From IMG/VR virus record IMGVR_UViG_3300045988_183612: a stretch of DNA of 64,000 nt; one strand, written 5' to 3'. How positions within the stretch are numbered: position 1 is the stretch's first letter; every line of letters begins with the position of its first letter. Source of the stretch: a virus. Shown here piece by piece: positions 47,035 to 63,149 of this stretch. A program made the translations under genes and the position numbers. The notes below the pieces were generated by a model. It saw only the letters and a program-made list of their open reading frames with translations, ran no database searches and was not told the origin of the DNA.

Positions 47035-47056
47035 TTACAAGGATAGGAAAGAGAAT

Positions 47057-48046: not shown

Positions 48047-48051
48047 AATTA

Positions 48052-48079
48052 AACTGGTTACTATTAGTAGCCAGTTTTT
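48052..48079 (+). terminator. rho-independent terminator
   Basis: AACTGGTTACTATTAGTAGCCAGTTTTTTT. Confidence 0.65.
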
Positions 48080-48085
48080 TTATTT

Positions 48086-48096
48086 TTCTGTCATTG
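48086..48096 (+). promoter_or_regulatory. TTCTGTCATAT-family motif
   Basis: TTCTGTCATTG, 43 bp before ATG 48131. Confidence 0.55.
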
Positions 48097-48130
48097 TATT
48101 ATTATAAAATTTAAAAAGGAGAATAAAATT

Positions 48131-48589
48131 ATGAAAACTAATGCATTTGAAATTAAGGAAAACAACTTAGAAACAGTAAATGATATGATAGAGGCACTAT
48201 TGGAAGTGCCTAAGAATTATTTACTGCATCCATTAGGACAGAAATGCGCAATTGCAGTTGATAATTACCATAAATGTGTATATTTAGACGATCCTAATAT
48301 GATGAGCGAGTTTAAATATGAATTAGAAGAAGATATAAAAGAAAATGATGATTGGGATGGAGAAATCCCTGACGACAGTGATAGCCTTGAAAGATTTTCA
48401 TTTTATTATGTTTGGATAGGATATGAGTCAGATTGCGGAGACAATTCAGGAGAATATTCATATTTTTTAAATGAGGATATGGCAAATGATTTCTTTGAAT
48501 CTTCTAAAAATACTGATAAAACATTAGGAACTGCTTCATTTATAAACGGCAGATTAGAACCTGTTAAAGTTATAAAAAGTACATTGTAA
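48131..48589 (+). CDS. acidic hypothetical protein
   Basis: AAAAGGAG RBS, motif at 48086. Confidence 0.5.
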   Translation: MKTNAFEIKENNLETVNDMIEALLEVPKNYLLHPLGQKCAIAVDNYHKCVYLDDPNMMSEFKYELEEDIKENDDWDGEIPDDSDSLERFSFYYVWIGYESDCGDNSGEYSYFLNEDMANDFFESSKNTDKTLGTASFINGRLEPVKVIKSTL

Positions 48590-48604
48590 AAAGAAAGGAA
48601 TTTT

Positions 48605-48874
48605 ATGAAAACTTTAAATATTATAAATAACTTTATTAAAACTTCAGAATCAGAAACAGAAAATAATATGTTGAATATCATTAAAAATACTTTAATAAAT
48701 GAGATTTCAGAAGCTTCTAAAGAAGTTTCTGAGGCGAGTTGGTTGACTGAAAGTACATATGATGACGATGGATATTCTAACGATGATGGCGAGGAAGTTA
48801 TTTATGCAGATACAGCAGTTAATATAATTGAAAGCGTCATATATGATAATTCTGATGAAAATAATAACAACTAA
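48605..48874 (+). CDS. acidic hypothetical protein
   Basis: AAGGAA RBS. Confidence 0.45.
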   Translation: MKTLNIINNFIKTSESETENNMLNIIKNTLINEISEASKEVSEASWLTESTYDDDGYSNDDGEEVIYADTAVNIIESVIYDNSDENNNN

Positions 48875-48886
48875 GGAGAATAAATA

Positions 48887-49144
48887 ATGATAATAATAAG
48901 AAATGGTAAGGAAATAAAATTAACAGATGATGAGATTTATAAGGCTCATAAGGAATTTGTTTCAACATGGATGATTAATACAGCTAAAGAAATTATTCAG
49001 CCTCAGTATCATTCTGATATTACTGAGAATGATTATATTGATATTGGTGAAGCAGCTTATGATACTTACGCAGAAGGTAATGGACTTACTGAATATGAAG
49101 CTGTTGAAGATGCTGTGGAAAAATTCTTAAGTGAAAGAAATTGA
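48887..49144 (+). CDS. hypothetical protein
   Basis: AAGGAG RBS. Confidence 0.45.
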   Translation: MIIIRNGKEIKLTDDEIYKAHKEFVSTWMINTAKEIIQPQYHSDITENDYIDIGEAAYDTYAEGNGLTEYEAVEDAVEKFLSERN

Positions 49145-49205
49145 ATATTTTTCATAACTGAATAAGATTTTTTGAAAGCGGGAGACTTATGTTTTCTGCT
49201 TTTTT

Positions 49206-49216
49206 TTCTGTCATAA
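49206..49216 (+). promoter_or_regulatory. TTCTGTCATAT-family motif
   Basis: TTCTGTCATAA, 40 bp before the flap-exonuclease ATG 49248. Confidence 0.6.
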
Positions 49217-49247
49217 ATATATTAAAAATTATAAAGGAGAAAAATTA

Positions 49248-50129
49248 ATGAAAAATATTATGATTTTTGATGGGAATTACATTCTCAGAAGATCTTTTTA
49301 CGGTGTTCCAGAATTAAAAACCTCAAAGGGATTTCCGACTAATGCAATTAAAGGAGCTTTAAATACAATTCTATATATGAAAGAAAAGTATAGTCCTGAT
49401 GAATTAATTGTTGCATTTGATACTGCAAAGCCAACTTTCAGGCATTTAATGTATAATGGGTACAAGGCAACTAGAGATCCTGCACCGGAAGAATTTAAGA
49501 TTCAGAGACAGGCTATTGTCCCTATTCTTAAAACAATGAATATATGTGTTATTGAAAAAGAAGGATATGAAGCAGATGATATTATAGGGACAATTTCAAC
49601 TATTGAAAGTAAAGCAGGTAATAAAGTAAATATCATATCTGCGGATCATGATTTGTTGCAATTATGTAATGATTTAGTATCATTAATTGTTCCAAACAAC
49701 CCGGAAGATATTTGGACTCCGGCAGAAATTATGAATGAATATTCCGTTACTCCTAAACAGTTTATTGATGTAAAAGCATTAATGGGAGATAAATCGGATA
49801 ATATTCCTGGAGCTGCAGGTATTGGACCTAAAACTGCAAGTAAACTAATACATAAGTATGGAAATTTGTTTAACATATATATGAATATTTCAGATATTGA
49901 ATCTAATATGTCTAAAGGAAAAAGTATTTCAACTTGTTTGATAAATAGTGAAGATAATATTTTGTTGTCAAAAATTTTAGCAACAATAAAAACAGATGTA
50001 GAACTTGATGCTTATAACGCTAATGTATCAGATAATATGTTAAATGAAATTAGTGAGCAGATATTAGGTTTGTATGAACTTAACAGTATTATAAGTATAC
50101 TTAAAAATGGTAACATTGTTTGCCTATAA
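49248..50129 (+). CDS. 5'-3' exonuclease / flap endonuclease (Pol I N-terminal domain family)
   Basis: MIFDGNYILRRSFYG, FDTAKPTFRHLMYNGYKATR, EADDIIGT, SADHDLLQL and the H3TH motif LMGDKSDNIPGAAGIGPKTASKLI. Confidence 0.9.
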   Translation: MKNIMIFDGNYILRRSFYGVPELKTSKGFPTNAIKGALNTILYMKEKYSPDELIVAFDTAKPTFRHLMYNGYKATRDPAPEEFKIQRQAIVPILKTMNICVIEKEGYEADDIIGTISTIESKAGNKVNIISADHDLLQLCNDLVSLIVPNNPEDIWTPAEIMNEYSVTPKQFIDVKALMGDKSDNIPGAAGIGPKTASKLIHKYGNLFNIYMNISDIESNMSKGKSISTCLINSEDNILLSKILATIKTDVELDAYNANVSDNMLNEISEQILGLYELNSIISILKNGNIVCL

Positions 50130-50257
50130 TTATATTTAAGGAGAAAATCATGATAATTGAAATTTTAACAAATGGTTAGTGTAATATTAAATTCGAAAAG
50201 ACAAATTGTAGAGTAAACGCTTCATATTTAACCGATGTCCAAAATGACTTATTAAAT

Positions 50258-50566
50258 ATGTGCATTAATTATTATAACAATAATACGGCATCCTGTTATT
50301 TTGATTCTGAAGGCTCTACAGCAACGCTAGTTTTGACACCGGATACAGCTTTCATAATTCATGAATGGGAGCATTTAGGCTTAATTAAACTATTGGAATT
50401 ACCAAAGGAAATCATTGATTGTATAGTAAAGGAAATTGTAAAACAAATTGATTCTGTTGCAAGTTTTTTATCATGTGAATGTGATGATTTATTTCAGTAT
50501 GAAAAAAGAAAATCTGAATTAATACAAAAATTATATTTTGTACATGATAAGAGTAATTCAAATTAA
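50258..50566 (+). CDS. hypothetical protein (possibly 50150..50566 with an in-frame TAG)
   Basis: ATG at 50258 has a weak RBS. A strong AAGGAGAAAATCATG at 50150 is in the same frame but hits a TAG at 50175. Confidence 0.4.
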   Translation: MCINYYNNNTASCYFDSEGSTATLVLTPDTAFIIHEWEHLGLIKLLELPKEIIDCIVKEIVKQIDSVASFLSCECDDLFQYEKRKSELIQKLYFVHDKSNSN

Positions 50567-50617
50567 AACAAATGCTTAATAACAAGTACCCATTAATAGG
50601 TACTTGTTATTTTATTT

Positions 50618-50628
50618 TTCTGTCATTT
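50618..50628 (+). promoter_or_regulatory. TTCTGTCATAT-family motif
   Basis: TTCTGTCATTT, 46 bp before ATG 50666. Confidence 0.55.
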
Positions 50629-50665
50629 ATTTATTATAACAATAAATGGAAGGAGAGTAAAAAAT

Positions 50666-51247
50666 ATGATTAAAGAATTTAAGGAATTAGTAAATGCAAT
50701 AAATTCGCCAGATAATGAATATAGAGAGAATGATTTAGATATGTTAAATTACAATATGGCCGCATTTGGAGAATATGTACAGATTGTTTATCATCAAAAC
50801 TATTCAACTCCAATTAAATATGCTACACTTGAGGGAGAAGAATTACGAGAAGCTATTCAGTCTATGGATAAAAATCGGAGAATTAAACATGAAGCTGCAA
50901 TAGCTGCGTGTTCCCAAATCAATAGAGATTGTGAATATTATAATGTTCCTAAGTTTTGCCCTGAAACAACTGATAGACATATAATCGCAGATTTTTGCGC
51001 TCAGGTAACGGCTGCTTTTTATCTTGACGGAATCGGTAGAGATGCTAAAACTATAGATGATGTTATAAAGGCAATGACTCAAAATTGTAAAAGTGTTAAT
51101 ATTAGTAATATAACAAACAATATTGACACAAATGAACTATCAGATATTGATTTAGATTTAGGCGGAGAAGATGATGAAGATAAAATTATGCCAGATGTAA
51201 TTCATACTGAAATTAATAAAGATAACAGAGAGGAAGAAGTAAGATAA
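50666..51247 (+). CDS. hypothetical protein
   Basis: GGAAGGAG RBS, motif at 50618. Confidence 0.5.
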   Translation: MIKEFKELVNAINSPDNEYRENDLDMLNYNMAAFGEYVQIVYHQNYSTPIKYATLEGEELREAIQSMDKNRRIKHEAAIAACSQINRDCEYYNVPKFCPETTDRHIIADFCAQVTAAFYLDGIGRDAKTIDDVIKAMTQNCKSVNISNITNNIDTNELSDIDLDLGGEDDEDKIMPDVIHTEINKDNREEEVR

Positions 51248-51552
51248 TGGTAACTTTTATTAGAACATATGAATCCGGTCCATGGATAATAGATGAATAC
51301 GATAATAAAACATATAGAATTCTATTAAGAAGAGATTTAAGAACAGGTAAAGTCATAAGATTCTTTTTTACTCCAAAGATTCCATATTATGATATTGAAA
51401 TTAAAACCATAAAAGATGATTTTTATATTAGTATTACTGGTAATGTTTCATATGATATTAATGATATTGATAAATTAAAAGGCAGAATAGATTATGCTAA
51501 AAATTTGATAACTTATATAAAAGAAAATATATGTAACAAGTATTCTTTTTAA
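51247..51552 (+). CDS. hypothetical protein
   Basis: ATAATGG overlap with the upstream gene (translational coupling). Confidence 0.45.
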   Translation: MVTFIRTYESGPWIIDEYDNKTYRILLRRDLRTGKVIRFFFTPKIPYYDIEIKTIKDDFYISITGNVSYDINDIDKLKGRIDYAKNLITYIKENICNKYSF

Positions 51553-51561
51553 TATTCATGC

Positions 51562-51588
51562 AAGCGTCCAAAATTGGACGCTTTTTTT
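51562..51588 (+). terminator. rho-independent terminator before the DnaE C-terminal piece
   Basis: AAGCGTCCAAAATTGGACGCTTTTTTT. Confidence 0.75.
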
Positions 51589-51592
51589 AATT

Positions 51593-51603
51593 TTCTGTCA
51601 TAA
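51593..51603 (+). promoter_or_regulatory. TTCTGTCATAT-family motif
   Basis: TTCTGTCATAA, 44 bp before ATG 51639 of the DnaE C-terminal piece. Confidence 0.6.
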
Positions 51604-51638
51604 ATTATATAGTTATGAATTGAAAGGAGAAATTTAAA

Positions 51639-53324
51639 ATGAATAAAACAGGTATTGAAGATTTAATAGCAATGAATGCTTTATATCGTCCTGGTCCTGA
51701 AAAGTTTATACCTGATTTCATAGAAGGTAAAAAGGATGCATCTAAGATTAAATATTTATGTCCTCAATTAGAGCCAATTTTGTCAACTACTTATGGACAG
51801 ATAGTTTATCAGGAACAGGTAATGCAGATTGTTCGTGATTTAGCAGGATATACATGGGGGCGTTCTGATTTAGTCCGTAGAGCTATGTCAAAAAAACATC
51901 AGGATGAAATTGATGCTGAAAGACACACTTTTGTATATGGCAATGCTGATACTAAAAAAGAAAATGAAGCATTAGTACCAGGTTGTATTTCAAATGGAAT
52001 ACCAGAAGAAATTGCTCATAAAATCTGGGATGCGATGGTTGATTTTGCTAAGTATGCTTTTAATAAGTCACATGCCTCTGCTTATGCTGTTACATCATAT
52101 TGGACTGCTTTTCTTAAGTATTATTATCCGGCTTATTATCTTACAAATGTAATAAATCATACTGATAAGATTGATGAAGTCGCTGATGATATTAGTGATG
52201 CTCTTGATTTTGGAGTAAAGGTATTGCCTCCGGACATTAATGCTTCAAATTTACATTGTGATGTTGTAGATGGAAATATTTTGTATGGTCTGAGTAATAT
52301 TAAGAATGTTGGAGCAGAAGCAGCTAAAATTATTGAAGATAGAAATGTTAATGGAGAATATTCTGATATTAAGGATTTTATCAAACGAACAAATATTAAT
52401 GCAGAAGCATTAAGTTCCTTAATTAAAGCAGGTGCTTTTGATTGCCTTGGTTATACAAGAACAATGATATCATTAGATATGATTTGTATGAAAGAAATTC
52501 AGGATACAATCAAGAAAATCAGAGAGAAGAGTAAGTTTATTGAAAACGCAAGTAAAGTTATTGAATTTGTGGAAGATTATATTGATCTTGATGAGTTTAA
52601 GGAAAAAATTTCAGAAGAAAATATTTCCTTTCAAGTTACTTCAAAAAAGATGCCAACTAAGGATTCCATAATTAAACGTATCAATTCAGCTAAGACAGTT
52701 ATAGAAAGCTTAGAAGATGATCTTGAAAATATAGATATTGATTATGTAGAAGATGATTTAGGTCAGATTCTAAATGATGAAAAAGAAGTGTTAGGTGTTT
52801 ATATTACAGGGCATCCAATTGATGAGTATAATATTTATACAGATCCCATTTCTGATATTTCAACAGAAGTTAATGATGTATCTGGTATAATTAAAAATCT
52901 TGTTATAAGAAAGGACAGAAATGGATACGAATGGGTAACTTTTGAGGTAGAAGATAAAACAGGTTCTATTAATGGTGTATGTTTTTCTAAGGATTATGCA
53001 AATATTAGAGACTTACTTGTTAATGATGCTAAATTATGTTTATCAGGGAAAATTCAAGTAGATGATTTTAGATCTTCAGATGACGAAACTGTATATCAGA
53101 TTATTGTTAAATCTGTTAAACCTTTAAAGAAAAATAAGTCTTCATATAGATTTATTTGTACTGTTTCCGAAGTAAACGATGTTCTTGATTCTATTAATGA
53201 ATATCTGGTGGACGTTGATGGAGATTATTTATATTGGCTTGATTCAACAACTGGAATTGAACATTTATGTAAGAAATTCATTAACCCTGATATGTCAGCC
53301 CCTTCAATAGTACGCAAATGCTAA
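51639..53324 (+). CDS. dnaE: DNA polymerase III alpha C-terminal piece (fingers, HhH, OB) as a separate ORF
   Basis: ALYRPGP and NKSHASAYAVTSYWTAFLKYYYP are DnaE motifs. Has its own motif (51593), AAAGGAGA RBS and ATG. The N-terminus abuts the end of exon 2 in the DnaE alignment. Confidence 0.8.
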   Translation: MNKTGIEDLIAMNALYRPGPEKFIPDFIEGKKDASKIKYLCPQLEPILSTTYGQIVYQEQVMQIVRDLAGYTWGRSDLVRRAMSKKHQDEIDAERHTFVYGNADTKKENEALVPGCISNGIPEEIAHKIWDAMVDFAKYAFNKSHASAYAVTSYWTAFLKYYYPAYYLTNVINHTDKIDEVADDISDALDFGVKVLPPDINASNLHCDVVDGNILYGLSNIKNVGAEAAKIIEDRNVNGEYSDIKDFIKRTNINAEALSSLIKAGAFDCLGYTRTMISLDMICMKEIQDTIKKIREKSKFIENASKVIEFVEDYIDLDEFKEKISEENISFQVTSKKMPTKDSIIKRINSAKTVIESLEDDLENIDIDYVEDDLGQILNDEKEVLGVYITGHPIDEYNIYTDPISDISTEVNDVSGIIKNLVIRKDRNGYEWVTFEVEDKTGSINGVCFSKDYANIRDLLVNDAKLCLSGKIQVDDFRSSDDETVYQIIVKSVKPLKKNKSSYRFICTVSEVNDVLDSINEYLVDVDGDYLYWLDSTTGIEHLCKKFINPDMSAPSIVRKC

Positions 53325-53345
53325 TTTAATATTTATTTTATGTTT

Positions 53346-53375
53346 TACCGCTGTTTATTGCAGCGGTATTTTTTT
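53346..53375 (+). terminator. rho-independent terminator
   Basis: TACCGCTGTTTATTGCAGCGGTATTTTTTT. Confidence 0.75.
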
Positions 53376-53397
53376 ATGTAAAGATTTTTAAAATTGT

Positions 53398-53408
53398 ATC
53401 TGTCATAT
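53398..53408 (+). promoter_or_regulatory. TTCTGTCATAT-family motif
   Basis: ATCTGTCATAT, 37 bp before ATG 53437. It heads the CPBP/sigma-factor operon. TTTTTTTATGTAAAG sits 24 nt upstream. Confidence 0.55.
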
Positions 53409-53436
53409 ATATATTAGAAAGGTTGGAGGAAAATAT

Positions 53437-54348
53437 ATGATACTTAGTAACAACAACAGTAATATTAAGGAATTAAGAAATAAAAAAAATAAGCATGATT
53501 TAAATTCTTATATGGATTTTATGGCAAAAAACAAAATGAAAAGTAATTCTTTCTTTTCAAAATCAAAACAGTATATAAAGATTTTTATTCCATTTATTAT
53601 TTCTGTTTTTATAATTTTATTTTCTATGTTTATTGCAACATTTATAGACAGTCTATTAAATATGTATATGAATGATGCAGGAGGAATTTCAACTAAAATA
53701 GATTATGAAGGATTTCGATTAATTTACACAATATCAACATATACATTAATGTTTGTTATGTGCATTATTTGTATAAAAAGCTCATTTTACAATTATAAAA
53801 AAGATTTGTTTATGAAAAATAAATTAGTAGTAAATTGGAATTTTGTATTTTGTTTCATATTAACTTCTGTAATATTGCAGCTTATTTCAGGAATTCAAAT
53901 GCATTTTGTAAATGTATCAAATATTGATTATGGAAGTTTAGGAATAAAAACAATTATATCTACAATAATAGCAACTTTTGTGGCACCTATTATTGAGGAA
54001 TTGACTTTTAGATATATAATTTATGGCTATGCATATAAAGCAAGCAACAATAAATTATGTGCAAATATAATCCAAGCAGTTTTATTTGGAATAATTCATT
54101 TTAATTTTATTTTATTCCCTATATATGCTTTTGGCGGATATTTGTTAGGTGCTGTAAGAGATAAATATGGTATTAAACTTAGCAGCTTATATCATATTCT
54201 AATAAACTGTGTGGCATTAATACCATTTACGTTTTTTATAACAAATATATATTTACAGGTATGCATTTTAATAGTCTGCATAATGAGTTTAATTTATTTT
54301 GTAATTAAGTGTTTTGAAAATATCAATATAGAAATTAAGGAGCAATAA
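53437..54348 (+). CDS. CPBP-family intramembrane metalloprotease (second copy)
   Basis: IEELTFRYIIYG, FGIIHF. Multipass membrane protein. GGAGG RBS. Confidence 0.75.
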   Translation: MILSNNNSNIKELRNKKNKHDLNSYMDFMAKNKMKSNSFFSKSKQYIKIFIPFIISVFIILFSMFIATFIDSLLNMYMNDAGGISTKIDYEGFRLIYTISTYTLMFVMCIICIKSSFYNYKKDLFMKNKLVVNWNFVFCFILTSVILQLISGIQMHFVNVSNIDYGSLGIKTIISTIIATFVAPIIEELTFRYIIYGYAYKASNNKLCANIIQAVLFGIIHFNFILFPIYAFGGYLLGAVRDKYGIKLSSLYHILINCVALIPFTFFITNIYLQVCILIVCIMSLIYFVIKCFENINIEIKEQ

Positions 54349-54351
54349 TTT

Positions 54352-54747
54352 ATGGAAACAAATATGAATAATGAATTAAAAAATAAGTCTATAAGTGATA
54401 TCCTTGAAGCTTCTTCAACGGATTTATATGAATGGTATTTAATTAATTTTAAGAAAGAAATTCCTAGATCAGATGAAATAGATTTATTGGAAATAGGAAA
54501 TTTATTGAGTGAAGTAGGAAATTATTTTACCTATTTTTCCTCAATGCATTCTATTTTAGATTCAATGGTAAAAGAAATGAAATTACACAAAGAGTCTTCA
54601 GATAAATGTAAAGAGCTTATGATTAAACGAGATATATTAGGAACCTTTGAAGAGCAATCTAAATTTACATATAATGCAATTAGTAGAATATGTACAATGA
54701 AAATAGAAGCAAATAATGAATTAAAAATGCTAGGACATCAATGTTAA
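54352..54747 (+). CDS. hypothetical protein
   Basis: AAGGAG RBS. Immediately follows the CPBP gene. Confidence 0.45.
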   Translation: METNMNNELKNKSISDILEASSTDLYEWYLINFKKEIPRSDEIDLLEIGNLLSEVGNYFTYFSSMHSILDSMVKEMKLHKESSDKCKELMIKRDILGTFEEQSKFTYNAISRICTMKIEANNELKMLGHQC

Positions 54748-54759
54748 GAGGAGATTTTT

Positions 54760-55788
54760 ATGGCAGATAAGAATTTATTATTAAATAAAAAAAACAATAA
54801 AGATGAATATGTTGATGAATTATTTGATACAAATAAACCAATAGAAAACATAAATATTTTATCAGAGGATAATTATACCGATATTTTAAATGATAAAGAG
54901 ATTTTAAATGAAAAAGAGAAACTATTATTAGAAAATAATATAACTTATTATATTAAATCATTCGCTGATTATCCGGTTTTATCCAAAGATGAAACTCTTA
55001 AATTATTTGAAGAGATAAAAAAACATCCTAAAAAGAAAAAAGAAATAACCGAAAAATTGATTTTATCTAATATGCGTTTAGTCATCAGTATTGCTAAAGC
55101 CGTTACAGCTAAAACGCAAAGTTTTGAAATGGATGATTTATGTCAGGCCGGTATTTTCGGATTATACAGAGCTATACAAATGTTTGATTATAAATTAGGA
55201 TATGCATTTTCAACTTATGCAACTCATTGGATTAGACAGAGTATATATAGAGAATTAGCCAATTATGATTTATTAGTTAGATTCCCTGTACATGTAAGAG
55301 AACAGGATTCTTTTGTTAAGACTACATTTGTGGATTTAACTAATAAACTTCAAAGAAAACCTACAATTGATGAATTATATGATGTAGTAAAACAAAGATA
55401 TCCTCTTTTAACTAAAGAAATGCTTGTACATATTCAGAGCTTTAATGAATTGGTTTCATTAGATGCACCTATTCAAAGTGATGAAGGCCATGACGATTCG
55501 TGTTTGGCTGATTATATAGAAGCTCCTGAACCTAAAGTTGAAGATACGATTATTCAAAAAGAAATGAATGAACTGCTTTGGAAAGAAGTTGAAGATTGTC
55601 TCACTCCTAGAGAATTATATGTAATTAAGAGTAGAATGGGATATGGTTCAAAGGTTAAAACTTTAAAAGATATAGGTACTGAATGGAATGTTTCCAGAGA
55701 ACGAATCAGACAAATTGAATCAAAAGCAATAAAAAAGATTAGAGTTCGTTTCAGACGGAAAGGATATAGTATACAATCTTTTATGTAA
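54760..55788 (+). CDS. sigma-70 family RNA polymerase sigma factor
   Basis: Region 2 ILSNMRLVISIAKAV and FSTYATHWIRQSIYRELAN. Region 3 RFPVHVREQD...KPTIDEL. Region 4 LTPRELYVIKSRMGYG..KTLKDIGTEWNVSRERIRQIESKAIKKIR. Confidence 0.85.
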   Translation: MADKNLLLNKKNNKDEYVDELFDTNKPIENINILSEDNYTDILNDKEILNEKEKLLLENNITYYIKSFADYPVLSKDETLKLFEEIKKHPKKKKEITEKLILSNMRLVISIAKAVTAKTQSFEMDDLCQAGIFGLYRAIQMFDYKLGYAFSTYATHWIRQSIYRELANYDLLVRFPVHVREQDSFVKTTFVDLTNKLQRKPTIDELYDVVKQRYPLLTKEMLVHIQSFNELVSLDAPIQSDEGHDDSCLADYIEAPEPKVEDTIIQKEMNELLWKEVEDCLTPRELYVIKSRMGYGSKVKTLKDIGTEWNVSRERIRQIESKAIKKIRVRFRRKGYSIQSFM

Positions 55789-56628
55789 TATATAAATAAA
55801 ATGCAGTTATCAATAGGTAGCTGTATTTTTTTATGATTACACTTCCTTTAAGTGTAATATGTCATACACCTTCTTCAAAGCCCTTCTATTATTTTCTTTT
55901 TCATTGATACGCTTTTTATTATTAAAATATAAAAATTAGAGCCTTATATAATACATTTGATTATTCCTTAATAGCGTTTTAAGACTTAATATAATAACCG
56001 CCAGAATATTATTAAGGATTAAAAGCGTATAACTATTATTGTTATATCCTTATACAATATCATTTATCAGCTTAATACATTTTGTGTTTATTTCCCTGGC
56101 AATTCCTTACCTGTCTCTAGCAAGCACTTCATTTATCCCAATTAATGCCTTTAATATACCAATAAATCATATAATTTTCTTATATATAATATATGATAAT
56201 TACAAAAATTATGATTACTAGATTCCTGTAAATCTATTCTTCGCCCTGCAAATGCCTTAGTAAGCCCAATAATCCCATTTCTGTCTCAATAGATGCATTC
56301 ATATACACTAATTCTTTCTTATTTGCTCTTAGATCTATTTCCTTTACTCTATCATTTCTATATATGTTCCCAGTAATTCCATTAATTAACTTTAGTAAAT
56401 AATAATTATATCCCATTAATCAGTTATATTTATTTTTCTCACTAATTATACAGTTTATTGTACCCAATTAATCCATATATAATTGCTAATATTACCAATT
56501 ACATGTTATCAAATTAACATTTTTTATCTCTTAAATCAGCATATAATAACTACATCATGGTATTATTCTGACACATATAAGGCATTTTATTGGCTATGCA
56601 ACGGATAATACATTACTACATATTGTTA

Positions 56629-56872
56629 TCATTATTACATTTATGTATTAAATATTTAGCTATATATTGTTAATTTTATTGCACAAATTTTTCTATTCTA
56701 TAACATAATGTTGTTAGTTTTAATGTATATTAAATCATATTTTATATCTATATATTGTTATTATTTTTGTATCTTAGCTATATTTTAATAAATCTTAAAT
56801 AACTATATATTGTTAATAAAGTTAACATATTAAACTAATATACAACAATAAACGTACAATATATTGTTATTA
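56629..56872 (+). repeat. iteron-like direct repeats TATATATTGTTA x5
   Basis: Copies at ~56629, 56665, 56752, 56807 and 56861. They lie inside a 1.2-kb ORF-free AT-rich region that also carries CCCAATTAAT repeats (56132, 56421, 56466) and TTATCCCA DnaA-box-like words. Confidence 0.6.
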
Positions 56873-57021
56873 TTTTTCCCAAGTAAAGGCATAGTATACC
56901 CAATAAAGTGCTTAGAAGAACACAAAAACGGGATATTTTAATAAATAAAAGGCATTTACATTTAGTTACTGACTTATTTTGATACACATCAATTATTTTA
57001 TGTAAAATAATAATTCATTTT

Positions 57022-57032
57022 TTCTGTCATAT
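57022..57032 (+). promoter_or_regulatory. TTCTGTCATAT-family motif
   Basis: TTCTGTCATAT, 44 bp before ATG 57068. Confidence 0.6.
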
Positions 57033-57067
57033 TAAAAATATAACTAAATAAAAGGAGAACTAATTAT

Positions 57068-58003
57068 ATGCAAAAAATGAATTACGAAGATTTTCTTAAA
57101 CATCTTAAATTCGAATTACTTCAAAATATTGAAGATATTACACCAACAGATATAGTTTACACATCAGATAAGCTTATTTTTCATTCTAAAAATCAGTTTA
57201 TGCGTCCCTTAGAATTTAAATTAAATCAATTATATAAACAATATTTAAATAATTCGTCAATAGAAGAAATTGCATTGTCAATATCTGAAGCATTTTATAG
57301 AAACAAAAATTCTAATGGTAGTGAATATAAACTTAATAATTTAGCTCCAGAAATTAATTCAAATGATATAAAACACTATATTATGCCTCAATTAATACAA
57401 AAGCCGGACAATATGGAAGATTTAAGCGGCATTCCTCATAAGCCATTTTATGAGTTCGAAATAATTTATAATGTGATCATACCTAAAGAAAATTCAGAAG
57501 GTACAATGTTTGTAATTGATAATAACTATATGAGGGACATACTGAAAATTAATGAAAACGAATTGTACAATCTTGCAATTCATTCAATATATTCCAACAA
57601 ATATTTTATCAGTGTATTAGGTGATTATTTTTTGACGCAACTGGCAGATGATGATAATTATGAAAAGACAAAGAAAGAATTATCTTTTCTAAGTAATTCT
57701 GGTGGGTTTGAGAGCAAATGTATTAAAGGAATATATGCAATTCAAAATGTAATCGACTTTTATAATACAAGTGCTATTCTGAACAATAATTTGCTTAAGA
57801 ATATTTCAGAGAAACTGAAAACAAATTTATACATTATTCCTGTTACAGCACATATTCTGTTGATATGTAAATACAGTGAATTTACTCCTGAAGAAATTCA
57901 AATGGCATTAAAGATATTTGGTATTCAGGAAGAAGAAGATTATCTGAGTTCAGATATATTTATATTTAACAAAGAATCAGGTGAATTAAATAAAATAGAA
58001 TAA
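57068..58003 (+). CDS. hypothetical protein (311 aa)
   Basis: AAAAGGAGAAC RBS, motif at 57022. Confidence 0.5.
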   Translation: MQKMNYEDFLKHLKFELLQNIEDITPTDIVYTSDKLIFHSKNQFMRPLEFKLNQLYKQYLNNSSIEEIALSISEAFYRNKNSNGSEYKLNNLAPEINSNDIKHYIMPQLIQKPDNMEDLSGIPHKPFYEFEIIYNVIIPKENSEGTMFVIDNNYMRDILKINENELYNLAIHSIYSNKYFISVLGDYFLTQLADDDNYEKTKKELSFLSNSGGFESKCIKGIYAIQNVIDFYNTSAILNNNLLKNISEKLKTNLYIIPVTAHILLICKYSEFTPEEIQMALKIFGIQEEEDYLSSDIFIFNKESGELNKIE

Positions 58004-58042
58004 ATAATACAATATAATTTAAAACAGAAAGGAAAGAGAAAA

Positions 58043-58585
58043 ATGATTATAACTATATTAATAAATGTAGTCTTTGTTGTTTCATTGATTATGTTTAGTT
58101 TTTATTTTGTGACTGCAATCAAATACGATATAACTCTTATTGATAAGGCATATATGAGCTTACTTATAGGAGTATTCCCGGGAATTGTTAATGTAAGTTT
58201 TAAAAATTCTATAGCTACTGTGATAGTTTTATTAATTAGTGTAACGGCTCTTATATGGATAGCTTTTACAAAATTTTTTGAGAAAGAACATAAAAAAGAA
58301 ATTCTTTATGATTGTTTGCTTTATGATATATCACAGGATGATTTAAAGAAATTCAGACATATGAGCCGTAATAAACAGATTGCTTTTCTAAAGTCTGTTA
58401 TTACAACTGTAGAATCAGCAGAAAAAGAAGAGTCCACTGATGAGAACGGTAATAAGGTTATTACAACCAAGACAGTAATACAGCAAGTACCTTTAATTGA
58501 AAATGACGAAGAATTAGCAGAGTATGAACCAATTCTTAGAAAAAATAAAGTATGGAGCATTTATTATGACGCTTACAGGAAATGA
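58043..58585 (+). CDS. small membrane protein (AFLKS...YEPIL family)
   Basis: Two N-terminal TM helices. Shares QIAFLKS and YEPILR with 59147..59437. Confidence 0.5.
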   Translation: MIITILINVVFVVSLIMFSFYFVTAIKYDITLIDKAYMSLLIGVFPGIVNVSFKNSIATVIVLLISVTALIWIAFTKFFEKEHKKEILYDCLLYDISQDDLKKFRHMSRNKQIAFLKSVITTVESAEKEESTDENGNKVITTKTVIQQVPLIENDEELAEYEPILRKNKVWSIYYDAYRK

Positions 58586-58739
58586 TGCTGTTGATTTTTT
58601 TTGAATCAATGCAGCACCCAGACGAAAGGCAGCAGGAAATATTATCTAAGATTAAAAGCAATATAACCTTAAGGAATATTCCTAATGGGTATGAAGCTGA
58701 TATAAAGAATTTGGACATGTCTTTTTTAGGAGAAAAATA

Positions 58740-59015
58740 ATGACATTTAAAGAAGCTAGAAAAGAAGCAAGAAAAATAGCACAGCAAACTGGATATTGGG
58801 GATATATTTTTAAGGATAAATCCGGGGAATGGTTTACATCAGACTGTAATAATTTTACTTCTGATAATTCATTCTATGTAAATAAGGATGGTAAGATCCT
58901 TAACATGCAAAAATATGAGAAGATAAAAAAGAAGCTTGATAAGCAGGGAATTAAAGGACTGTGTTTATTTTCACCCGAATTAATGAAATATATTGAACAG
59001 CATGGTGATTATTAG
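58740..59015 (+). CDS. hypothetical protein
   Basis: GGAGAAAAATAATG RBS. Confidence 0.45.
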   Translation: MTFKEARKEARKIAQQTGYWGYIFKDKSGEWFTSDCNNFTSDNSFYVNKDGKILNMQKYEKIKKKLDKQGIKGLCLFSPELMKYIEQHGDY

Positions 59016-59146
59016 AAATATGATAAAAAAATTACAATATATAGTGATTTTTCTTTAATTTAAGTTAGTACATTTACACTACTTAAATATAAAATAGTGT
59101 GGATTTTACACTATTTAGATAGAAGATAATAAATGGGGGGCTATTT

Positions 59147-59437
59147 ATGAAGATTATTATACTTTCGTTTGTTATAACTTTTATGGTAATAATGCTGTTT
59201 AAATCAACTATTGATTTAATTGACAGAGTAAAAGAGAAGTCATTTCTATATAGTCTTATTGAGCAATGCACTGATTGCAGCCATGATGAGATTATTACCT
59301 TTAAGAAGCAGTTATCAAGGGAAGAGCAGATGGCATTTTTAAAGTCACTTAAGTATAAGGAGTCTTATAAGAATGGATTTCTTATTACAGAAGAGATAGA
59401 TTTAAAAATATATGAACCAATACTAAAAAGGAGATAA
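59147..59437 (+). CDS. small membrane protein (AFLKS...YEPIL family)
   Basis: TM helix plus QMAFLKSL...YEPILKRR. Paralog of 58043..58585. Confidence 0.5.
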   Translation: MKIIILSFVITFMVIMLFKSTIDLIDRVKEKSFLYSLIEQCTDCSHDEIITFKKQLSREEQMAFLKSLKYKESYKNGFLITEEIDLKIYEPILKRR

Positions 59438-59440
59438 GTT

Positions 59441-60118
59441 ATGAAATTTAAGAAAAAGAAATCATTTTGGAAAGAATTTTTTAATGAGTGTATAGGAGTA
59501 ATATTAGTCGGGGCAATTATAATATATATTGCCTTATCTGCCATTATAGGAAATCTGATATTGCCATACATAAATAATGGAAAAGAAATAAATCCGTATA
59601 TAGAAGATGTAAGCAGTAAGTTTACAATATTTTTAATAAAAACAATCATAGGTGCTATATATCTATTTGGCGCAATTTTCATGCTGTTAATTGCTTTTGC
59701 TATTATAAGCATAATTGTAATAGCAATAGTAACCGGAATAACACATATAACAGCCGTAAAACGATATACATATTTGCCTCTTACAGTAGATGAAGTAAGA
59801 GAAGCTATAAATGCAGGATTATTTAAAGATACTCCTGAAAGCTATACAGATTATCTTACAAAACAGATGAAGTATTTTGATGGCAGTATAACCTTTTCAG
59901 TTGATGATATGAAAATAATAACAAAAACAATAAAAGAAATATGGGATGAATCATTTAAACTTAATAAAGATTATCTTATCAGGAATAAAATAGAAAGTTA
60001 TGATTATCTCCCATTTGAATTTAGGGATGACAGAGATGATTTATTTTGCCAGTTAAAGAAAGGCAAAACAGTAACTTTTGATATGGATGAAGGGTCTTTG
60101 ATTCAGACTATTAAATAA
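59441..60118 (+). CDS. hypothetical membrane protein
   Basis: AAAAAGGAG RBS. Two hydrophobic helices. Its last ~90 bp are duplicated at 60517..60605. Confidence 0.5.
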   Translation: MKFKKKKSFWKEFFNECIGVILVGAIIIYIALSAIIGNLILPYINNGKEINPYIEDVSSKFTIFLIKTIIGAIYLFGAIFMLLIAFAIISIIVIAIVTGITHITAVKRYTYLPLTVDEVREAINAGLFKDTPESYTDYLTKQMKYFDGSITFSVDDMKIITKTIKEIWDESFKLNKDYLIRNKIESYDYLPFEFRDDRDDLFCQLKKGKTVTFDMDEGSLIQTIK

Positions 60119-60134
60119 AAGAGAGAGGCATGGA

Positions 60135-60497
60135 ATGAAAAAAATTGGGACTATAATATTATATTTTATAATCGGAGTTACAGTCATAGCAGTTATGAAA
60201 GAAACCACAGAAGAAGTCCAGCTTTACAGTATCAGTACGGATAAGGAATATGAAGGTTCATTTGTATTAGGTTCAGGAAGTATTGATTCACAGGAATATA
60301 TAACTGCTTATCAAATTACAGAAGATGGTGGTAAGAAGTATTTCAAAATGAATAGAGATAAAGTAACAATCTATGAGACATTAAACAATAATGAACAGGC
60401 TTATGCCGTGATAAAAAAGGCTTTATTAGGTATTGAAGAAATTAAATTGTATGTTCCAAAAAATACAATAGAAAAGGAAATTAATCTTAATTTATAG
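60135..60497 (+). CDS. membrane-anchored hypothetical protein
   Basis: N-terminal signal or TM helix. GAGAGAGG RBS. Confidence 0.45.
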   Translation: MKKIGTIILYFIIGVTVIAVMKETTEEVQLYSISTDKEYEGSFVLGSGSIDSQEYITAYQITEDGGKKYFKMNRDKVTIYETLNNNEQAYAVIKKALLGIEEIKLYVPKNTIEKEINLNL

Positions 60498-60516
60498 TAG
60501 GGATAAATTTTGGATT

Positions 60517-60605
60517 GACAGATATGATTTATTTTGCCAGTTAGAGAGAAACAAAACAGTTGCTTTTGATATTGATGGTTGTTCTTTAATTCAAAATGTC
60601 AAATA
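60517..60605 (+). pseudogene. duplicated 3' fragment of gene 59441..60118 (no start codon)
   Basis: ~75% nucleotide identity to 60029..60118. It encodes DRYDLFCQLERNKTVAFDIDGCSLIQNVK*, compared with DRDDLFCQLKKGKTVTFDMDEGSLIQTIK*. Confidence 0.6.
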
Positions 60606-60702
60606 AAGAAAAAGGAAAAATTTTGATACATTTGATGATACTGATATAAAAAATCAAAAAGACAAAATTAATAAAGAATCATTAATAGTAGGAGAATAAG
60701 GT

Positions 60703-61224
60703 ATGAATTTAAAATTAAAAACACATAACGAATATTTGAATATTAATTTTGATAATGCGACTGATGAAAATATTAATAAATCTTTATCAAAAAAACGAAT
60801 AGCTAAAATTGTTTTAGCAGGTATTCTTATATGTTTTATTTTAAGAATTATAAGTTTGATTATAAAACTTACATTTATTTCAATAATTGCGTTAATAGGT
60901 TTTAGTGTTTTTATATATTTAAGTTTATTTATATTTATCAGTAAAGACATTGATTCCACTGTTATAGGTATTAAAAATTTAAAATATTGGGATAAAATAA
61001 TAGCTTTAAAAAAGGTTATTCAAGAAATAGACATGAATAAAGAAGTATATTTTCAATCAGATTTTACAGAGCTTCTTTATTTTAAAAAAAATAGCAGCAT
61101 ATATTCTGAATATAAGTTACCTTTAAGTGAAATAAAATATTCTGAATCAGATAACTTTGATTTAACTTATGACAAAAATACATTAAATATAATTTTGTAT
61201 GTTCCTATAAAATACATGTATTGA
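60703..61224 (+). CDS. hypothetical membrane protein
   Basis: AGGAGAATAAGG RBS. Central double TM segment. Confidence 0.5.
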   Translation: MNLKLKTHNEYLNINFDNATDENINKSLSKKRIAKIVLAGILICFILRIISLIIKLTFISIIALIGFSVFIYLSLFIFISKDIDSTVIGIKNLKYWDKIIALKKVIQEIDMNKEVYFQSDFTELLYFKKNSSIYSEYKLPLSEIKYSESDNFDLTYDKNTLNIILYVPIKYMY

Positions 61225-61274
61225 AAAAGCAACAAATGATTTTATTCTTAATTCTAAAAGAAAGGATGATCGTT

Positions 61275-61565
61275 ATGACAGATAAAGAATTTCATGATTT
61301 GAATAATTATAAAAAAGAAATAGGAAAAATGAGTGTTGAAATGGCAAATGCAAAATTCCATAAAGGATATTCTGATGATTCTGATGGATATAGTTTTGAA
61401 GATTCAATAGCTGATTTAGAATTTAAGCGAGATATTCTAAGAGGAGTTGATCCTATTGACGCATTATGTGACCTACAAGAGAAAACACTTGTATATCAAT
61501 TATTAAATCCTAATCCAAATATTTATGAGCAGGAAGAAATTTTTGATTACGATGAGGATTATTAA
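61275..61565 (+). CDS. hypothetical protein
   Basis: AAAGGA RBS, start MTDKEFHDL. Confidence 0.45.
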   Translation: MTDKEFHDLNNYKKEIGKMSVEMANAKFHKGYSDDSDGYSFEDSIADLEFKRDILRGVDPIDALCDLQEKTLVYQLLNPNPNIYEQEEIFDYDEDY

Positions 61566-62147
61566 TTACAGTAAAATAAAATCTACCATAGGAGCAGGAA
61601 CGAATTTCTTCTCAAAGAAAGCAAGAAAAGAACAATCGAAAATATTGAAACTAATGGCTTTGAAGAATATGACATTGAAACTGAAGAAGAATGGAAAGTT
61701 ATTAAAAATGAAATTTTAGATATTTGTATTGAATGTATTAAGAAGCTAAACCTTTGGAGACCCACTTATACCTTGTACTCAGCATAATTTTATCAGCTAT
61801 CCAATATAGTATTAAATTTGCACTTTAGAATTTATATCCTGACATACCACATTAAAACTAAATACAATCTGATTTTTGTATAGAAGATGATTGAAGCCAT
61901 ACCCTGTTATATTAAACTGCTAAACACATGTATAGCTCTTAATGTTAACAGGGTATTTTATGTTTTTCTCTGACATTCAGATACTTCTGTTTGGATATCA
62001 GATCATATGCTTATTTTTACATATAGGTTCCCCATCAAACCATAAATTAGTAACTTAAAGCTTCGGCAGGATTACTGATATTACTTGAAAATATAAACGG
62101 CACACTTAATGATATATGCTTTTTATGTCAAAAATTTAATTTAAAAT

Positions 62148-62158
62148 TCTGCCATATT
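62148..62158 (+). promoter_or_regulatory. TTCTGTCATAT-family motif (CTGCCAT variant)
   Basis: TTCTGCCATAT, 60 bp upstream of the next copy. Confidence 0.35.
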
Positions 62159-62205
62159 AACTTTAGCAATTTAAATTTCTGAATAAAAAATTTAAATATT
62201 ATTTA

Positions 62206-62216
62206 TTCTGTCATAT
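62206..62216 (+). promoter_or_regulatory. TTCTGTCATAT-family motif
   Basis: TTCTGTCATAT, 46 bp before ATG 62254. Confidence 0.6.
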
Positions 62217-62253
62217 TAATAAATAAAAAATATAAATAAGAAAGGAAATAAAA

Positions 62254-62601
62254 ATGAGTAAAATACAATTATTAAAAAGAAGCAAAAAAATGTTTTATTG
62301 TTTCCCGGCAATTTGTCTGTTGTTATCAGGATGTGGATTATTTAATAATAGTGTGCAACCAATTAATATAGTTACAGAGGAAAGTACTGTTTCAAACAAT
62401 AATCAGACTTATATTGATAACAAAGAATATGACAAAATAGTTATAAACAGTGAAGAAGAAGCTGAAGCTTTATTAAATGCCAATACATTACCGGTAACAA
62501 TCAATACTGAATCAATTTCTTATGATGGTCCTATAGACCCTGAAACTATTAATCAAGAAGTAAAAGAAAAATATGGAGAAAATGCTGAATTTGACATGTA
62601 G
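62254..62601 (+). CDS. lipoprotein (lipobox LSGC)
   Basis: Signal peptide with LLSGCGLF lipobox. Motif at 62206. Ends at TAG, but the frame stays open and protein-like for 63 more codons to 62790. Confidence 0.55.
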   Translation: MSKIQLLKRSKKMFYCFPAICLLLSGCGLFNNSVQPINIVTEESTVSNNNQTYIDNKEYDKIVINSEEEAEALLNANTLPVTINTESISYDGPIDPETINQEVKEKYGENAEFDM

Positions 62602-62842
62602 GAATGGAATATCAAAATAACTACATACACATTACCGGATGGAACAAAACTTCAAACAAGTAATGAAACTTCTTTTAATTCAGGAAGCAGTTTTATATTT
62701 AATGATAATAACAATAATGAGTATCGTTTTTATAATTTTATGGAAAACCAAGAGGGTTTTTATGTAATTCCCAGCAAATTATATCAGCTATAAAAGAGCA
62801 GATTAATTAATGAAAATCAAAAAATAAGAAAGGAAACATAAA

Positions 62843-63106
62843 ATGATAAAAAATTCTGATACTTTCAAAAATTGTACAAATTTAACAGAAATTGTAGGTA
62901 TTAATAATTGTACAAGTTTAACAGAGATAACAATACCAGATAGTGTAAAAACTATAAGTATGTACGCATTTAATAAATGTACTAATTTAACAAGTGTAAT
63001 ATATAAAGGAACTACATATACAACTAAAAGTAGCTTATCCAGTGCTTTAAAAGCTAATGGTGTAAAATGTGATTCAGATGCATTTAATAATGCAGGATTA
63101 AAATAA
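62843..63106 (+). CDS. BspA-type leucine-rich repeat fragment protein
   Basis: Two CTNLTEI...IPDSVKTI...AFNKCTNLTSV repeats. Followed by terminator 63122..63149. Confidence 0.5.
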   Translation: MIKNSDTFKNCTNLTEIVGINNCTSLTEITIPDSVKTISMYAFNKCTNLTSVIYKGTTYTTKSSLSSALKANGVKCDSDAFNNAGLK

Positions 63107-63121
63107 AATATAAATATCTTT

Positions 63122-63149
63122 AAGCCGGTTACTTTTGTAGCCGGCTTTT
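63122..63149 (+). terminator. rho-independent terminator
   Basis: AAGCCGGTTACTTTTGTAGCCGGCTTTT. Confidence 0.7.

Follow-up and report, generated by a model that had tools for sequence, protein, structure and literature searches.

Does a sigma factor encoded on a large mobile element read the promoter-like motif that recurs across the same element? The question arises from a 64,000-nucleotide (nt) stretch of DNA filed under IMG/VR virus record IMGVR_UViG_3300045988_183612 (hereafter the window), in which positions 54760-55788 encode a 342-amino-acid (aa) sigma factor. Judging from comparisons of sequence and predicted structure, we think that it probably does: the element's own sigma would direct the core RNA polymerase (RNAP) of the host to a private class of promoters, as SigN does on plasmid pBS32.

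We found that the open reading frame (ORF) encodes a full-length sigma-70 family protein with regions 1.2, 2, 3 and 4. Its ATG lies six bases after an AGAGGAG Shine-Dalgarno sequence. The first-pass annotation of this DNA had described regions 2, 3 and 4 as intact and textbook, had quoted two peptides, FSTYATHWIRQSI and VSRERIRQIESKAIKKIR, and had suggested a search with hidden Markov models (HMMs). Both peptides are present, and the Pfam search detected regions 2 and 4 well above the gathering cut-offs (Sigma70_r2, PF04542, aa 100-167, 53.7 bits against 24; Sigma70_r4, PF04545, aa 279-328, 41.8 bits against 24.1). For region 3, "textbook" was overstated at the Pfam level, because Sigma70_r3 (PF04539) scored 13.3 bits (E = 0.09), under its cut-off of 25.3. 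Despite the sub-threshold score, alignments and a structural model indicate that region 3 is present. The NCBIfam RpoD_Cterm alignment is contiguous through it (aa 98-334 against model positions 3-231 of 238), and solved SigA chains in the Protein Data Bank (PDB; searched with phmmer) align straight across it. An AlphaFold model (42 sequences) has a three-helix sigma-3 bundle at aa 177-228, with a predicted local distance difference test (pLDDT) score of 86-93. The same model places sigma-1.2/sigma-2 at aa 60-170 and sigma-4 at aa 260-334, with low confidence in the 3.2 linker. Residues 1-58 form a variable, acidic segment that is predicted to be disordered, and region 1.1 is absent, with no Pfam match to PF03979 or PF00140. 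The best PDB matches to the model in Foldseek were B. subtilis SigA, E. coli sigma-S and S. aureus SigA, with alignments of 280-340 columns.

Scores against curated models indicate that the protein is RpoD-like (group 1/2 architecture) and not SigF/G/E/K-like. A comparison with SigF/G/E/K, SigB and phage sigma factors had been proposed in the first-pass annotation; once made, it pointed to RpoD instead. RpoD_Cterm scored 179 bits and several RpoD equivalogs 170-179, followed by RpoS (151), RpoH (109), SigB/F/G (98) and FliA (97). The SigB/F/G score (TIGR02980, cut-off 234) is far under the RpoD-type matches, and no SigE or SigK model was among the best 25 of 48 matched families. The protein is neither a housekeeping RpoD nor an RpoS, because it missed every curated cut-off, those for primary sigmas (TIGR02393, 179 against 354; PRK09210, 172 against 572) as well as those for RpoS (TIGR02394, 151 against 378.7; PRK05657, 147 against 394). 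Phage sigma family PHROG 351 matched at 1.4e-54. We rejected MzaA of the MZA anti-phage system (179.7 bits against a cut-off of 800, model positions 456-708 only), and with it MZA or another defence system; PADLOC matched the sigma part only and nothing in the neighbouring genes.

Close relatives are few. Among 5.8 billion proteins the closest were two clusters with 98% and 51% identity, followed by Clostridia-type cellular RpoDs at ~37%. An exhaustive HMM search added three family members (P0134, P0135 and P0136) before scores fell to those of generic RpoDs, and one more sigma lineage was found through the neighbouring small gene. The closest relatives in the PDB are SigA, RpoD and RpoS. A scan of GTDB species representatives with the sigma returned distant generic sigmas and no relative, and the 64 kb contain no second sigma-like ORF.

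The motif occurs far more often than expected by chance. TTCTGTCATAT with at most one mismatch was found 44 times, compared with 3.68 +/- 1.64 in dinucleotide shuffles, and the exact 9-mer TCTGTCATA 29 times on the + strand and 5 times on the - strand (0.75 expected). Of the 43 intergenic gaps of 60 nt or more, 35 contained it (~80%). The shared upstream motif described in the first-pass annotation is real. A de novo motif finder using expectation maximization (EM) returned TTTTTTCTGTCATAT as the top signal in upstream regions. EM converged for lineages A and C of the element family and not for the small loci of B, D and E, which were evaluated by eye and with k-mer counts. The strand of the motif follows that of the genes: nearly all genes of the window are on the + strand, and in the left flank, viewed in reverse orientation and with mostly - strand genes, 8 copies were on the - strand and 2 on the other. 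A literature search for the motif string returned unrelated primer sequences only.

The geometry of the motif fits an extended -10 promoter. In a position weight matrix (PWM) of 32 sites, a T-rich tract is followed by T0 C1 T2 G3 T4 C5 A6 T7, invariant or nearly so, and then by A8 T9. The -10 hexamer would then be CATATn, with its C at -12; neither this C nor the one at -16 varies in any of the 32 sites. We take TCTG, at -17 to -14, to be the Gram-positive "TRTG"-like extended -10 of Voskuil and Chambliss. The matrix has a second conserved pair, T at +16 and A or G at +17 of the motif, 7 nt past the hexamer. We read this pyrimidine-purine step as the start site, predicted at +17, because 7 nt is the expected spacing between a -10 hexamer and the start. 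The Shine-Dalgarno sequence follows at about +32 and the start codon at a median of +45. No -35 element was found at the expected place in the 32-site matrix. We also considered CTGTCA as a -35 element (4/6 matches to TTGACA) and rejected it, because its -10 element, expected 17 nt downstream, would move the start site into the Shine-Dalgarno sequence or beyond it.

Some copies of the motif have an additional element. (A/G)TGT(A/C)A lies exactly 17 nt before TCTGTC at motif starts 8386, 17067, 19174, 24302, 31085, 39085, 53399, 57023, 62148 and 63285, about ten promoters in all, mostly straight after the T-run of a terminator. L007, L022 and L025 retain the T-run and RTG at the orthologous promoter of the sigma operon. 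RTGTAA is too far upstream to be a -35 element (about -40 to -35, 22 nt from the CATATn hexamer). The layout suggests that this subset may be a second promoter class or may bind an extra factor at about -40.

We examined the residues of the sigma that bear on recognition of the -10 region (E. coli numbering). Region 3.0 (PVHVRE) retains H455 and E458, the contacts to the TG of an extended -10, and both are retained across the sigma family. In region 2, Q437 is retained, W433 is replaced by H, and T440 is replaced by Y. E. coli sigma70 tolerates a T-to-C change at -12 only with Q437H or T440I (PMC2613000). T440 has been lost in all six lineages (Y, I, L, I, R and Q, two of them Ile), and W433 in five of six. 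Among 253 other RpoD-like proteins, T440 is kept in 72% and W433 in 92%. Region 2.2 is recognisable and altered (DLCQAGIFGL versus DLIQEGNLGL), region 3.1 holds an insertion of 4-5 residues, and region 4.2, VSRERIRQIESKAIKKIR, is nearly identical to that of primary sigmas. Relative to two cellular RpoDs, the family has a lysine-rich insertion (HPKKKKE) after region 1.2 and another of two residues before region 2.2.

The sigma family and the motif were found together in every lineage for which enough DNA was available; the sixth lineage has the sigma and one copy of the motif. Loci of ~20 kb contained 6-13 copies in lineages A-C and 2-4 in D and E (0.1-0.3 expected), and the motif was at chance level in unrelated low-GC contigs. 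The geometry of the promoter, the invariant C at -12, the loss of T440 and the co-conservation of sigma and motif support the view that the one reads the other.

Based on these results we propose the following mechanism. The element's sigma would bind the host RNAP core and direct it to promoters of the form T(-17) C T G T C(-12) A T A T, an extended -10 with no -35 element and a start site ~17 nt past the first T. Such promoters would drive most operons, including those for replication and recombination, the relaxase/coupling-protein region and the sigma operon. The sigma operon itself carries the motif, so that the mechanism would include positive feedback. We infer core binding and recognition of the motif by the sigma; the two proteins encoded upstream of it, a CPBP-family protease and a small helical protein, may have a role in sigma control.

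The sigma gene is the last of three in a terminator-bounded operon. A hairpin at 53346-53368 forms the 5' boundary, the gaps between the genes for the CPBP protease, a 131-aa protein and the sigma are 3 and 12 nt, and a Shine-Dalgarno sequence precedes each gene. Co-transcription with the protease gene, as the first-pass annotation had it, is borne out by this arrangement; the description of the sigma gene as promoter-proximal is not, as it is the promoter-distal gene. The protease translation contains the EExxxR, FxxxH and HxxxN motifs. The 131-aa protein has no transmembrane segment and is predicted to be a plain helical hairpin with no recognisable DNA-binding fold. The order DnaE C-terminal part, CPBP, small ORF (125-142 aa), sigma is kept in five lineages (the window, L007, L022, L025 and L026/L027), and in the sixth (P0136; 1.5-kb contigs only) a small ORF again precedes the sigma gene. 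Identities of the other lineages to the window are 56-70% for the DnaE C-terminal part, 54-62% for the small ORF, 40-46% for the sigma and 32-44% for the protease.

Matches to the sigma-70 consensus promoter around the operon are rarer than chance (25 versus 38 in shuffles). One of them, TTGAAG-17-TATAAT (10/12 matches) at 54647-54675, falls within the 3' end of the 131-aa gene and precedes the sigma start by ~85 nt. Going by its sequence, it could be a host-dependent start-up promoter for the sigma.

Operons that pair a protease with a sigma factor are known from spoIIGA-sigE and PrsW/RsiW/SigW, in which the protease activates the sigma by removal of a pro-sequence or cleavage of an anti-sigma, and the PrsW superfamily is related to CPBP. 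The operon described here resembles these systems in linking a gene for a membrane protease to a sigma gene. It differs from them in that the 131-aa protein has no transmembrane segment and the N-terminal extension of the sigma is poorly conserved. The arrangement raises a more far-reaching idea, which we put forward only tentatively: an essentially orthogonal system in which an RpoD-derived master sigma and its private extended -10 promoter run nearly every operon, from replication and repair to cell-envelope and transfer genes, and the CPBP and 131-aa proteins gate the sigma as a pro-sigma or anti-sigma type of switch. A master sigma gated in this way could allow the whole element of several hundred kb to be turned up or down as a unit by an envelope signal.

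Several observations weigh against recognition of the motif by the element's sigma. Residues 436, 437 and 440 vary among lineages while the motif TCTGTCATAT stays, lineage F has Q437T together with T440Q, and primary sigmas, too, vary at position 440. There was no simple covariation between residues 437/440 and the -12 base across lineages. Covariation is not clean because the specificity residues differ while the motif is constant, and because lineages D and E mix forms of the motif. In lineage D (L025), C and T are mixed at -12 (TCTGT(C/T)ATAT, with TCTGTTATAT variants), and lineage E (L026/L027, sigma P0135) has many TTTCTTATATAT sites beside TCTGTCATAT; these forms are possible natural promoter variants. 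Region 4.2 suits a TTGACA-like -35, yet the promoters have no -35 element. The 131-aa protein is more conserved than the sigma. Because the motif also precedes the sigma operon, expression could begin in a naive cell only through leaky recognition by the host or from another promoter. Another sigma, RNAP or activator could be encoded in the unseen part of the element.

A further point of this kind comes from a different plasmid family (lineage G, L032/L033), which encodes a 124-aa homologue of the 131-aa protein. No RpoD-like sigma was found within 10 kb on either side of the homologue, and TCTGTCATA is absent from these loci. Instead, start codons on both strands are preceded, at a distance of ~45-48 nt, by a recurring T-run with CTTGCAT(T/A)A. 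A canonical extended -10, TGnTATATA, stands before the gene for the small protein, and downstream of that gene are an ORF for a 169-aa coiled-coil protein and a RemA-like gene, with no sigma. Because of these loci, private motifs in the -10 region may be more widely spread, and the small protein is not strictly linked to this sigma.

Some of these observations could be accounted for if the primary sigma of the host reads TCTGTCATAT as an ordinary extended -10 and the element's sigma has a narrower or different job, either as an RpoS-like stress accessory (for a subset of genes or for the host chromosome) or as a competitor that modulates host transcription. The motif has TG at -15/-14 and A-11/T-10, which a primary sigma could use, and the comparable sigma of Inocles was annotated as RpoS and read as a stress factor (PMC12340149). 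The variation of the specificity residues under a constant motif, and the need of the sigma operon for a pre-existing factor, would also be explained. We nevertheless consider this unlikely. None of the 32 sites departs from C at -12 or -16, and the T-to-C change at -12 is a down mutation for sigma70, suppressed by Q437H or T440I. The motif is also confined to the element family, and sigma-70 consensus matches are depleted near the operon.

It is less likely still that some other factor of the element reads the motif (an activator, the 131-aa protein, or an RNAP or second sigma encoded outside the window) and that the RpoD-like sigma is incidental. In conservation the 131-aa protein equals DnaE and exceeds the sigma, its homologue in lineage G occurs with a motif of its own and no nearby RpoD-like sigma, and most of the element is unseen. 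However, the motif overlaps the -10 region, which is normally read by the sigma itself, the 131-aa protein has no fold that would suggest DNA binding, and no RNAP-like ORF was found in the window. One candidate, an 844-aa ORF (25929-28463), was rejected as a YonO-like single-subunit RNAP, having no DxDGD motif and no PDB relative.

We regard it as very improbable that a phage sigma diverts host RNAP to middle or late promoters in the course of an infection: the PHROG 351 match, the 103-kb contig of the element in IMG/VR, a YopX gene in the locus of one relative and the many small ORFs of unknown function to the right of the window fit a phage, but the element has a Mob_Pre relaxase, a TraG/VirD4-type coupling protein, PcfJ and DUF5688, no virion-type match was found among 24 PHROG-scanned proteins or in the Pfam annotations of the fetched loci, and its single promoter class spans replication, repair and transfer genes and not a temporal subset.

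The visible portion of the element is best described as a giant conjugative or mobilisable plasmid-like element. The description of the sigma as phage-encoded is unsupported, because the element has genes for a relaxase (the first gene of the window) and for a type IV secretion system (T4SS) coupling protein, and the genes scanned included none for virion proteins. The coupling protein (982 aa, TraG/VirD4-type) is encoded directly outside the window, together with a NERD protein. None of the 24 window proteins scanned against PHROGs matched a virion, packaging or lysis family, and no capsid, portal, terminase or tail match was present in the precomputed Pfam annotations for the loci retrieved (~100 kb seen). 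About 100 kb of the element has been seen; its full size may reach 0.26-0.81 Mb.

The element is prevalent in the human gut. Exact matches to the sigma protein are indexed in 470 assembly blocks, of which the six shown are ENA metagenome assemblies, and other loci of the family come from records labelled human gut or Hadza. The longest sigma-bearing contigs are 260-777 kb, and an exact-sequence look-up gave 245 contigs of up to 812 kb. IMG/VR contains one 103-kb contig of the element, and a near-identity DNA search with 45000-64000 gave no match among PLSDB plasmids or INPHARED phages. The GC content is 23-34% along the window and 28% overall. Stop codons are TAA (44), TGA (5) and TAG (4), as in the standard code, and on this usage we rejected recoded stops in the style of Lak-type megaphages. 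There is no transfer RNA gene in the window.

Genes in the window encode PARP-like, HD-domain and GGDEF proteins, PBP1A, two UvrD-like helicases, RecJ, RecA, a DnaG-type primase, flotillin, a second CPBP, a methyltransferase, guanylate kinase, a 5'-3' exonuclease, split DnaE and DUF5688. The PARP-like ADP-ribosyltransferase, HD(-GYP-like), GGDEF and class A PBP (transglycosylase and transpeptidase) genes are clustered at 4217-10980, adjoining the relaxase gene; this cluster is signalling and cell-wall cargo on a mobile element. The second CPBP/Rce1-like protease gene (36108-36992) is upstream of an N6/N4 DNA methyltransferase gene (37006-37902).

Three ORFs of the window (42993-44834, 45209-45967 and 51639-53324) together encode DnaE (Pol III alpha), and we examined this split in the window, L001, L002, L007, L022 and L026. 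Some relatives have an HNH_3 endonuclease gene between the first two parts, and in L001 and L022 these parts are fused into an 849-aa protein. In the lineage of the window, ~5.6 kb of unrelated genes (RlaP nucleotidyltransferase, 5'-3' exonuclease and DUF3232) separate the middle and C-terminal parts. The polymorphism looks like the result of insertion of a mobile intron, intein or homing endonuclease.

Other features of the element were observed. The terminator of the sigma operon is followed by a 1.2-kb, very AT-rich non-coding spacer (55830-57020) with a local reversal of GC skew and about five copies of CTATATATTGTTA (near 56618, 56660, 56748, 56802 and 56859); it could contain iterons or be a regulatory or origin-like region. 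The 844-aa ORF matches PHROG 33734 (unknown function) and has no Pfam relative. Its C-terminal half contains GDIDLS and HSGDYTD and may be TerD-like. Insertions of IS605-family TnpB (Cas12f-like) and Y1 transposase genes are present in some copies of the element only (L001/L003, 19218-20324; L022, 14309-15980). A long array of more than 30 very small ORFs (50-165 aa) on one strand, with no Pfam matches, extends to the right of the window (62000-64000, and 10400-20400 of L030/L031).

Table 1. Coordinates of the sigma gene, its operon and the copies of the motif (window positions unless stated otherwise)
Feature	Position	Strand	Basis or remark
Sigma-70 family factor, RpoD-like, 342 aa	54760-55788	+	Pfam, NCBIfam, PDB alignments, AlphaFold, Foldseek
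Sigma region 1.2-like segment (aa 60-88)	54937-55023	+	Alignment with cellular RpoD, AlphaFold pLDDT
Sigma region 2 (aa 100-167), 2.3/2.4 = FSTYATHWIRQSIYRE	55057-55260	+	Pfam r2, alignments
Sigma region 3 (aa 176-258)	55285-55533	+	RpoD_Cterm/SigA alignments, AlphaFold; Pfam r3 sub-threshold
Sigma region 4 (aa 260-334)	55537-55761	+	Pfam r4, alignments
Intrinsic-terminator-like hairpin and T-run after DnaE C-terminal gene	53346-53375	+	9-bp stem, 5 GC pairs
ATGTAA element, exactly 17 nt before TCTGTC	53376-53381	+	Sequence
Promoter-like motif TCTGTCATAT, sigma operon	53399-53408	+	PWM of 32 sites, enrichment
Predicted -10 of sigma operon, CATATA (-12 to -7)	53404-53409	+	TCTG = -17 to -14; predicted start site A 53416
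CPBP/Rce1-like intramembrane glutamic protease, 303 aa, first operon gene	53437-54348	+	PF02517, 57.7 bits
Soluble helical-hairpin protein, 131 aa, between CPBP and sigma	54352-54747	+	ORF in all five operon-bearing lineages
Terminator-like hairpin and T-run closing sigma operon (hairpin 55798-55829)	55798-55837	+	Sequence
Motif copy TTCTGTCATAT	1242-1252	-	Upstream of Mob_Pre relaxase gene (1-1206, - strand)
Motif copy	2555-2563	+	Intergenic
Motif copy, 1 mismatch	3954-3962	+	46 nt before ATG
Motif copy	5829-5837	+	Before HD-domain gene 5878
Motif copy	8604-8612	+	Before PBP1A gene 8647
Motif copy	11003-11011	+	
Motif copy, 1 mismatch	12172-12180	+	
Motif copy, 1 mismatch	12910-12918	+	
Motif copy	14147-14155	+	Before gene 14219
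Motif copy	16244-16252	+	Before gene 16287
Motif copy with RTGTAA-N17	17067-17075	+	Before UvrD-like helicase 17181
Motif copy with GTGTAA-N17	19174-19182	+	
Motif copy	21345-21353	+	Before gene 21391
Motif copy, 1 mismatch	21837-21845	+	Before RecJ-like gene
Motif copy, 1 mismatch	23723-23731	+	Before gene 23768
Motif copy, 1 mismatch, with ATGTAA-N17	24302-24310	+	Before RecA 24350
Motif copy	28520-28528	+	Before gene 28555
Motif copy	29209-29217	+	
Motif copy, 1 mismatch	30526-30534	+	Before gene 30571
Motif copy with ATGTAA-N17	31085-31093	+	Before flotillin 31224
Motif copy	32982-32990	+	Before 973-aa UvrD-like helicase 33024
Motif copy, 1 mismatch	36011-36019	+	Before second CPBP gene 36108
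Motif copy	36962-36970	+	Before methyltransferase 37006
Motif copy	38237-38245	+	
Motif copy with ATGTAA-N17	39085-39093	+	
Motif copy	40499-40507	+	Before gene 40549
Motif copy	41684-41692	+	Before gene 41730
Motif copy, 1 mismatch	42950-42958	+	Before DnaE N-terminal part 42993
Motif copy	46025-46033	+	
Motif copy, 1 mismatch	48087-48095	+	Before gene 48131
Motif copy	49207-49215	+	Before 5'-3' exonuclease 49248
Motif copy, 1 mismatch	50619-50627	+	Before gene 50666
Motif copy	51594-51602	+	Before DnaE C-terminal part 51639
Motif copy with ATGTAA-N17	57023-57031	+	Before DUF5688 gene 57068
Motif copy	62207-62215	+	Before gene 62254; second, 1-mismatch copy at 62148
Motif copy	63285-63293	+	Before YqeY-like gene 63332
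TTTCTTATATAT sites of lineage E, examples	L026: 1500-1580, 6170-6250, 6890-6965, 12240-12315		

If the element's sigma does read the motif, a prevalent, uncultivated giant element of the gut would insulate its genes from promoter recognition by the host and place them under the control of a single factor. This would explain the coherent expression of hundreds of kb of foreign AT-rich DNA. It would also provide a simple handle, one sigma and one 10-bp promoter, with which to study or switch the element, and a natural orthogonal pair of RpoD-like sigma and promoter for low-GC Gram-positive hosts. The reading of comparable sigmas of oral Inocles as RpoS, and so as stress response factors, would need revision. 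The operon of protease, helical protein and sigma is a candidate for a new module of sigma control.

The described elements most like the window in gene content, size and GC content are the Inocles, compared here by description. Inocles are giant elements of oral Streptococcus, 245-395 kb in size with 24-32% GC (PMC12340149). Among their conserved genes are those for Pol III alpha, an exonuclease, a bifunctional transglycosylase/PBP and an "RpoS" with transcripts in saliva (PMC12340149), a repertoire that the window shares. They are defined by InoC (~454 aa, with the PF13814 replication-relaxation domain) and are rare in faeces (PMC12340149). In contrast, the element described here is abundant in stool assemblies, with contigs up to 812 kb, and no PF13814/InoC-like gene is among the annotations of the window and flank. 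The Inocle sigma was read as a stress factor without promoter analysis (PMC12340149). We rejected the Hodor conjugative megaplasmids as relatives; they have 44-47% GC and a MOBH-like relaxase, versus 27-28% GC and Mob_Pre here.

Like RpoD/SigA and RpoS, the sigma has the domain order 1.2, 2, 3, 4 and a nearly identical region 4.2 (RERIRQIE), and it shares the region 2.3 aromatics, Q437, H455 and E458 with housekeeping and group 2 sigmas. It differs from these in having no region 1.1, in W433 to H and T440 to Y, in the family insertions and in being carried by a mobile element. Phages, among them cyanophage S-CBS3, Microcystis phage MaAM05 and Staphylococcus Kayvirus, likewise have truncated RpoD-like sigmas on mobile genomes, and these are 34-40% identical over regions 2-4. 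None of them covers at least 80% of the window sigma, and here there is no phage context.

The closest parallel in mechanism may be SigN (ZpdN) of B. subtilis plasmid pBS32. SigN drives ~19 plasmid promoters, including that of its own gene, and its regulon includes genes for gyrase, DNA Pol III, an exonuclease and peptidoglycan-related functions (PMC6751061). It is weakly similar to extracytoplasmic function (ECF) sigmas, reads a bipartite -35/-10 promoter (ATTTACGTTT ... CAGATATAA), is controlled by LexA and is linked to cell death (PMC6751061). In both cases one consensus lies upstream of many operons of the element, including that of the sigma itself, and by analogy we propose the same mechanism here. 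Compared by their described features, the two also differ: the sigma described here is full-length and RpoD-like and is encoded in an operon with a CPBP protease, and its presumed promoter, in contrast to the -35/-10 promoter of SigN, is an extended -10 without a -35 that occupies ~80% of the intergenic gaps. Sigmas of mobile elements with private regulons are thus already known. What is new is a full-length RpoD derivative together with a promoter-like motif that has no -35, has C at -12 and -16, and precedes most operons of a giant gut element, and the conserved operon of this sigma with a membrane protease and a helical partner.

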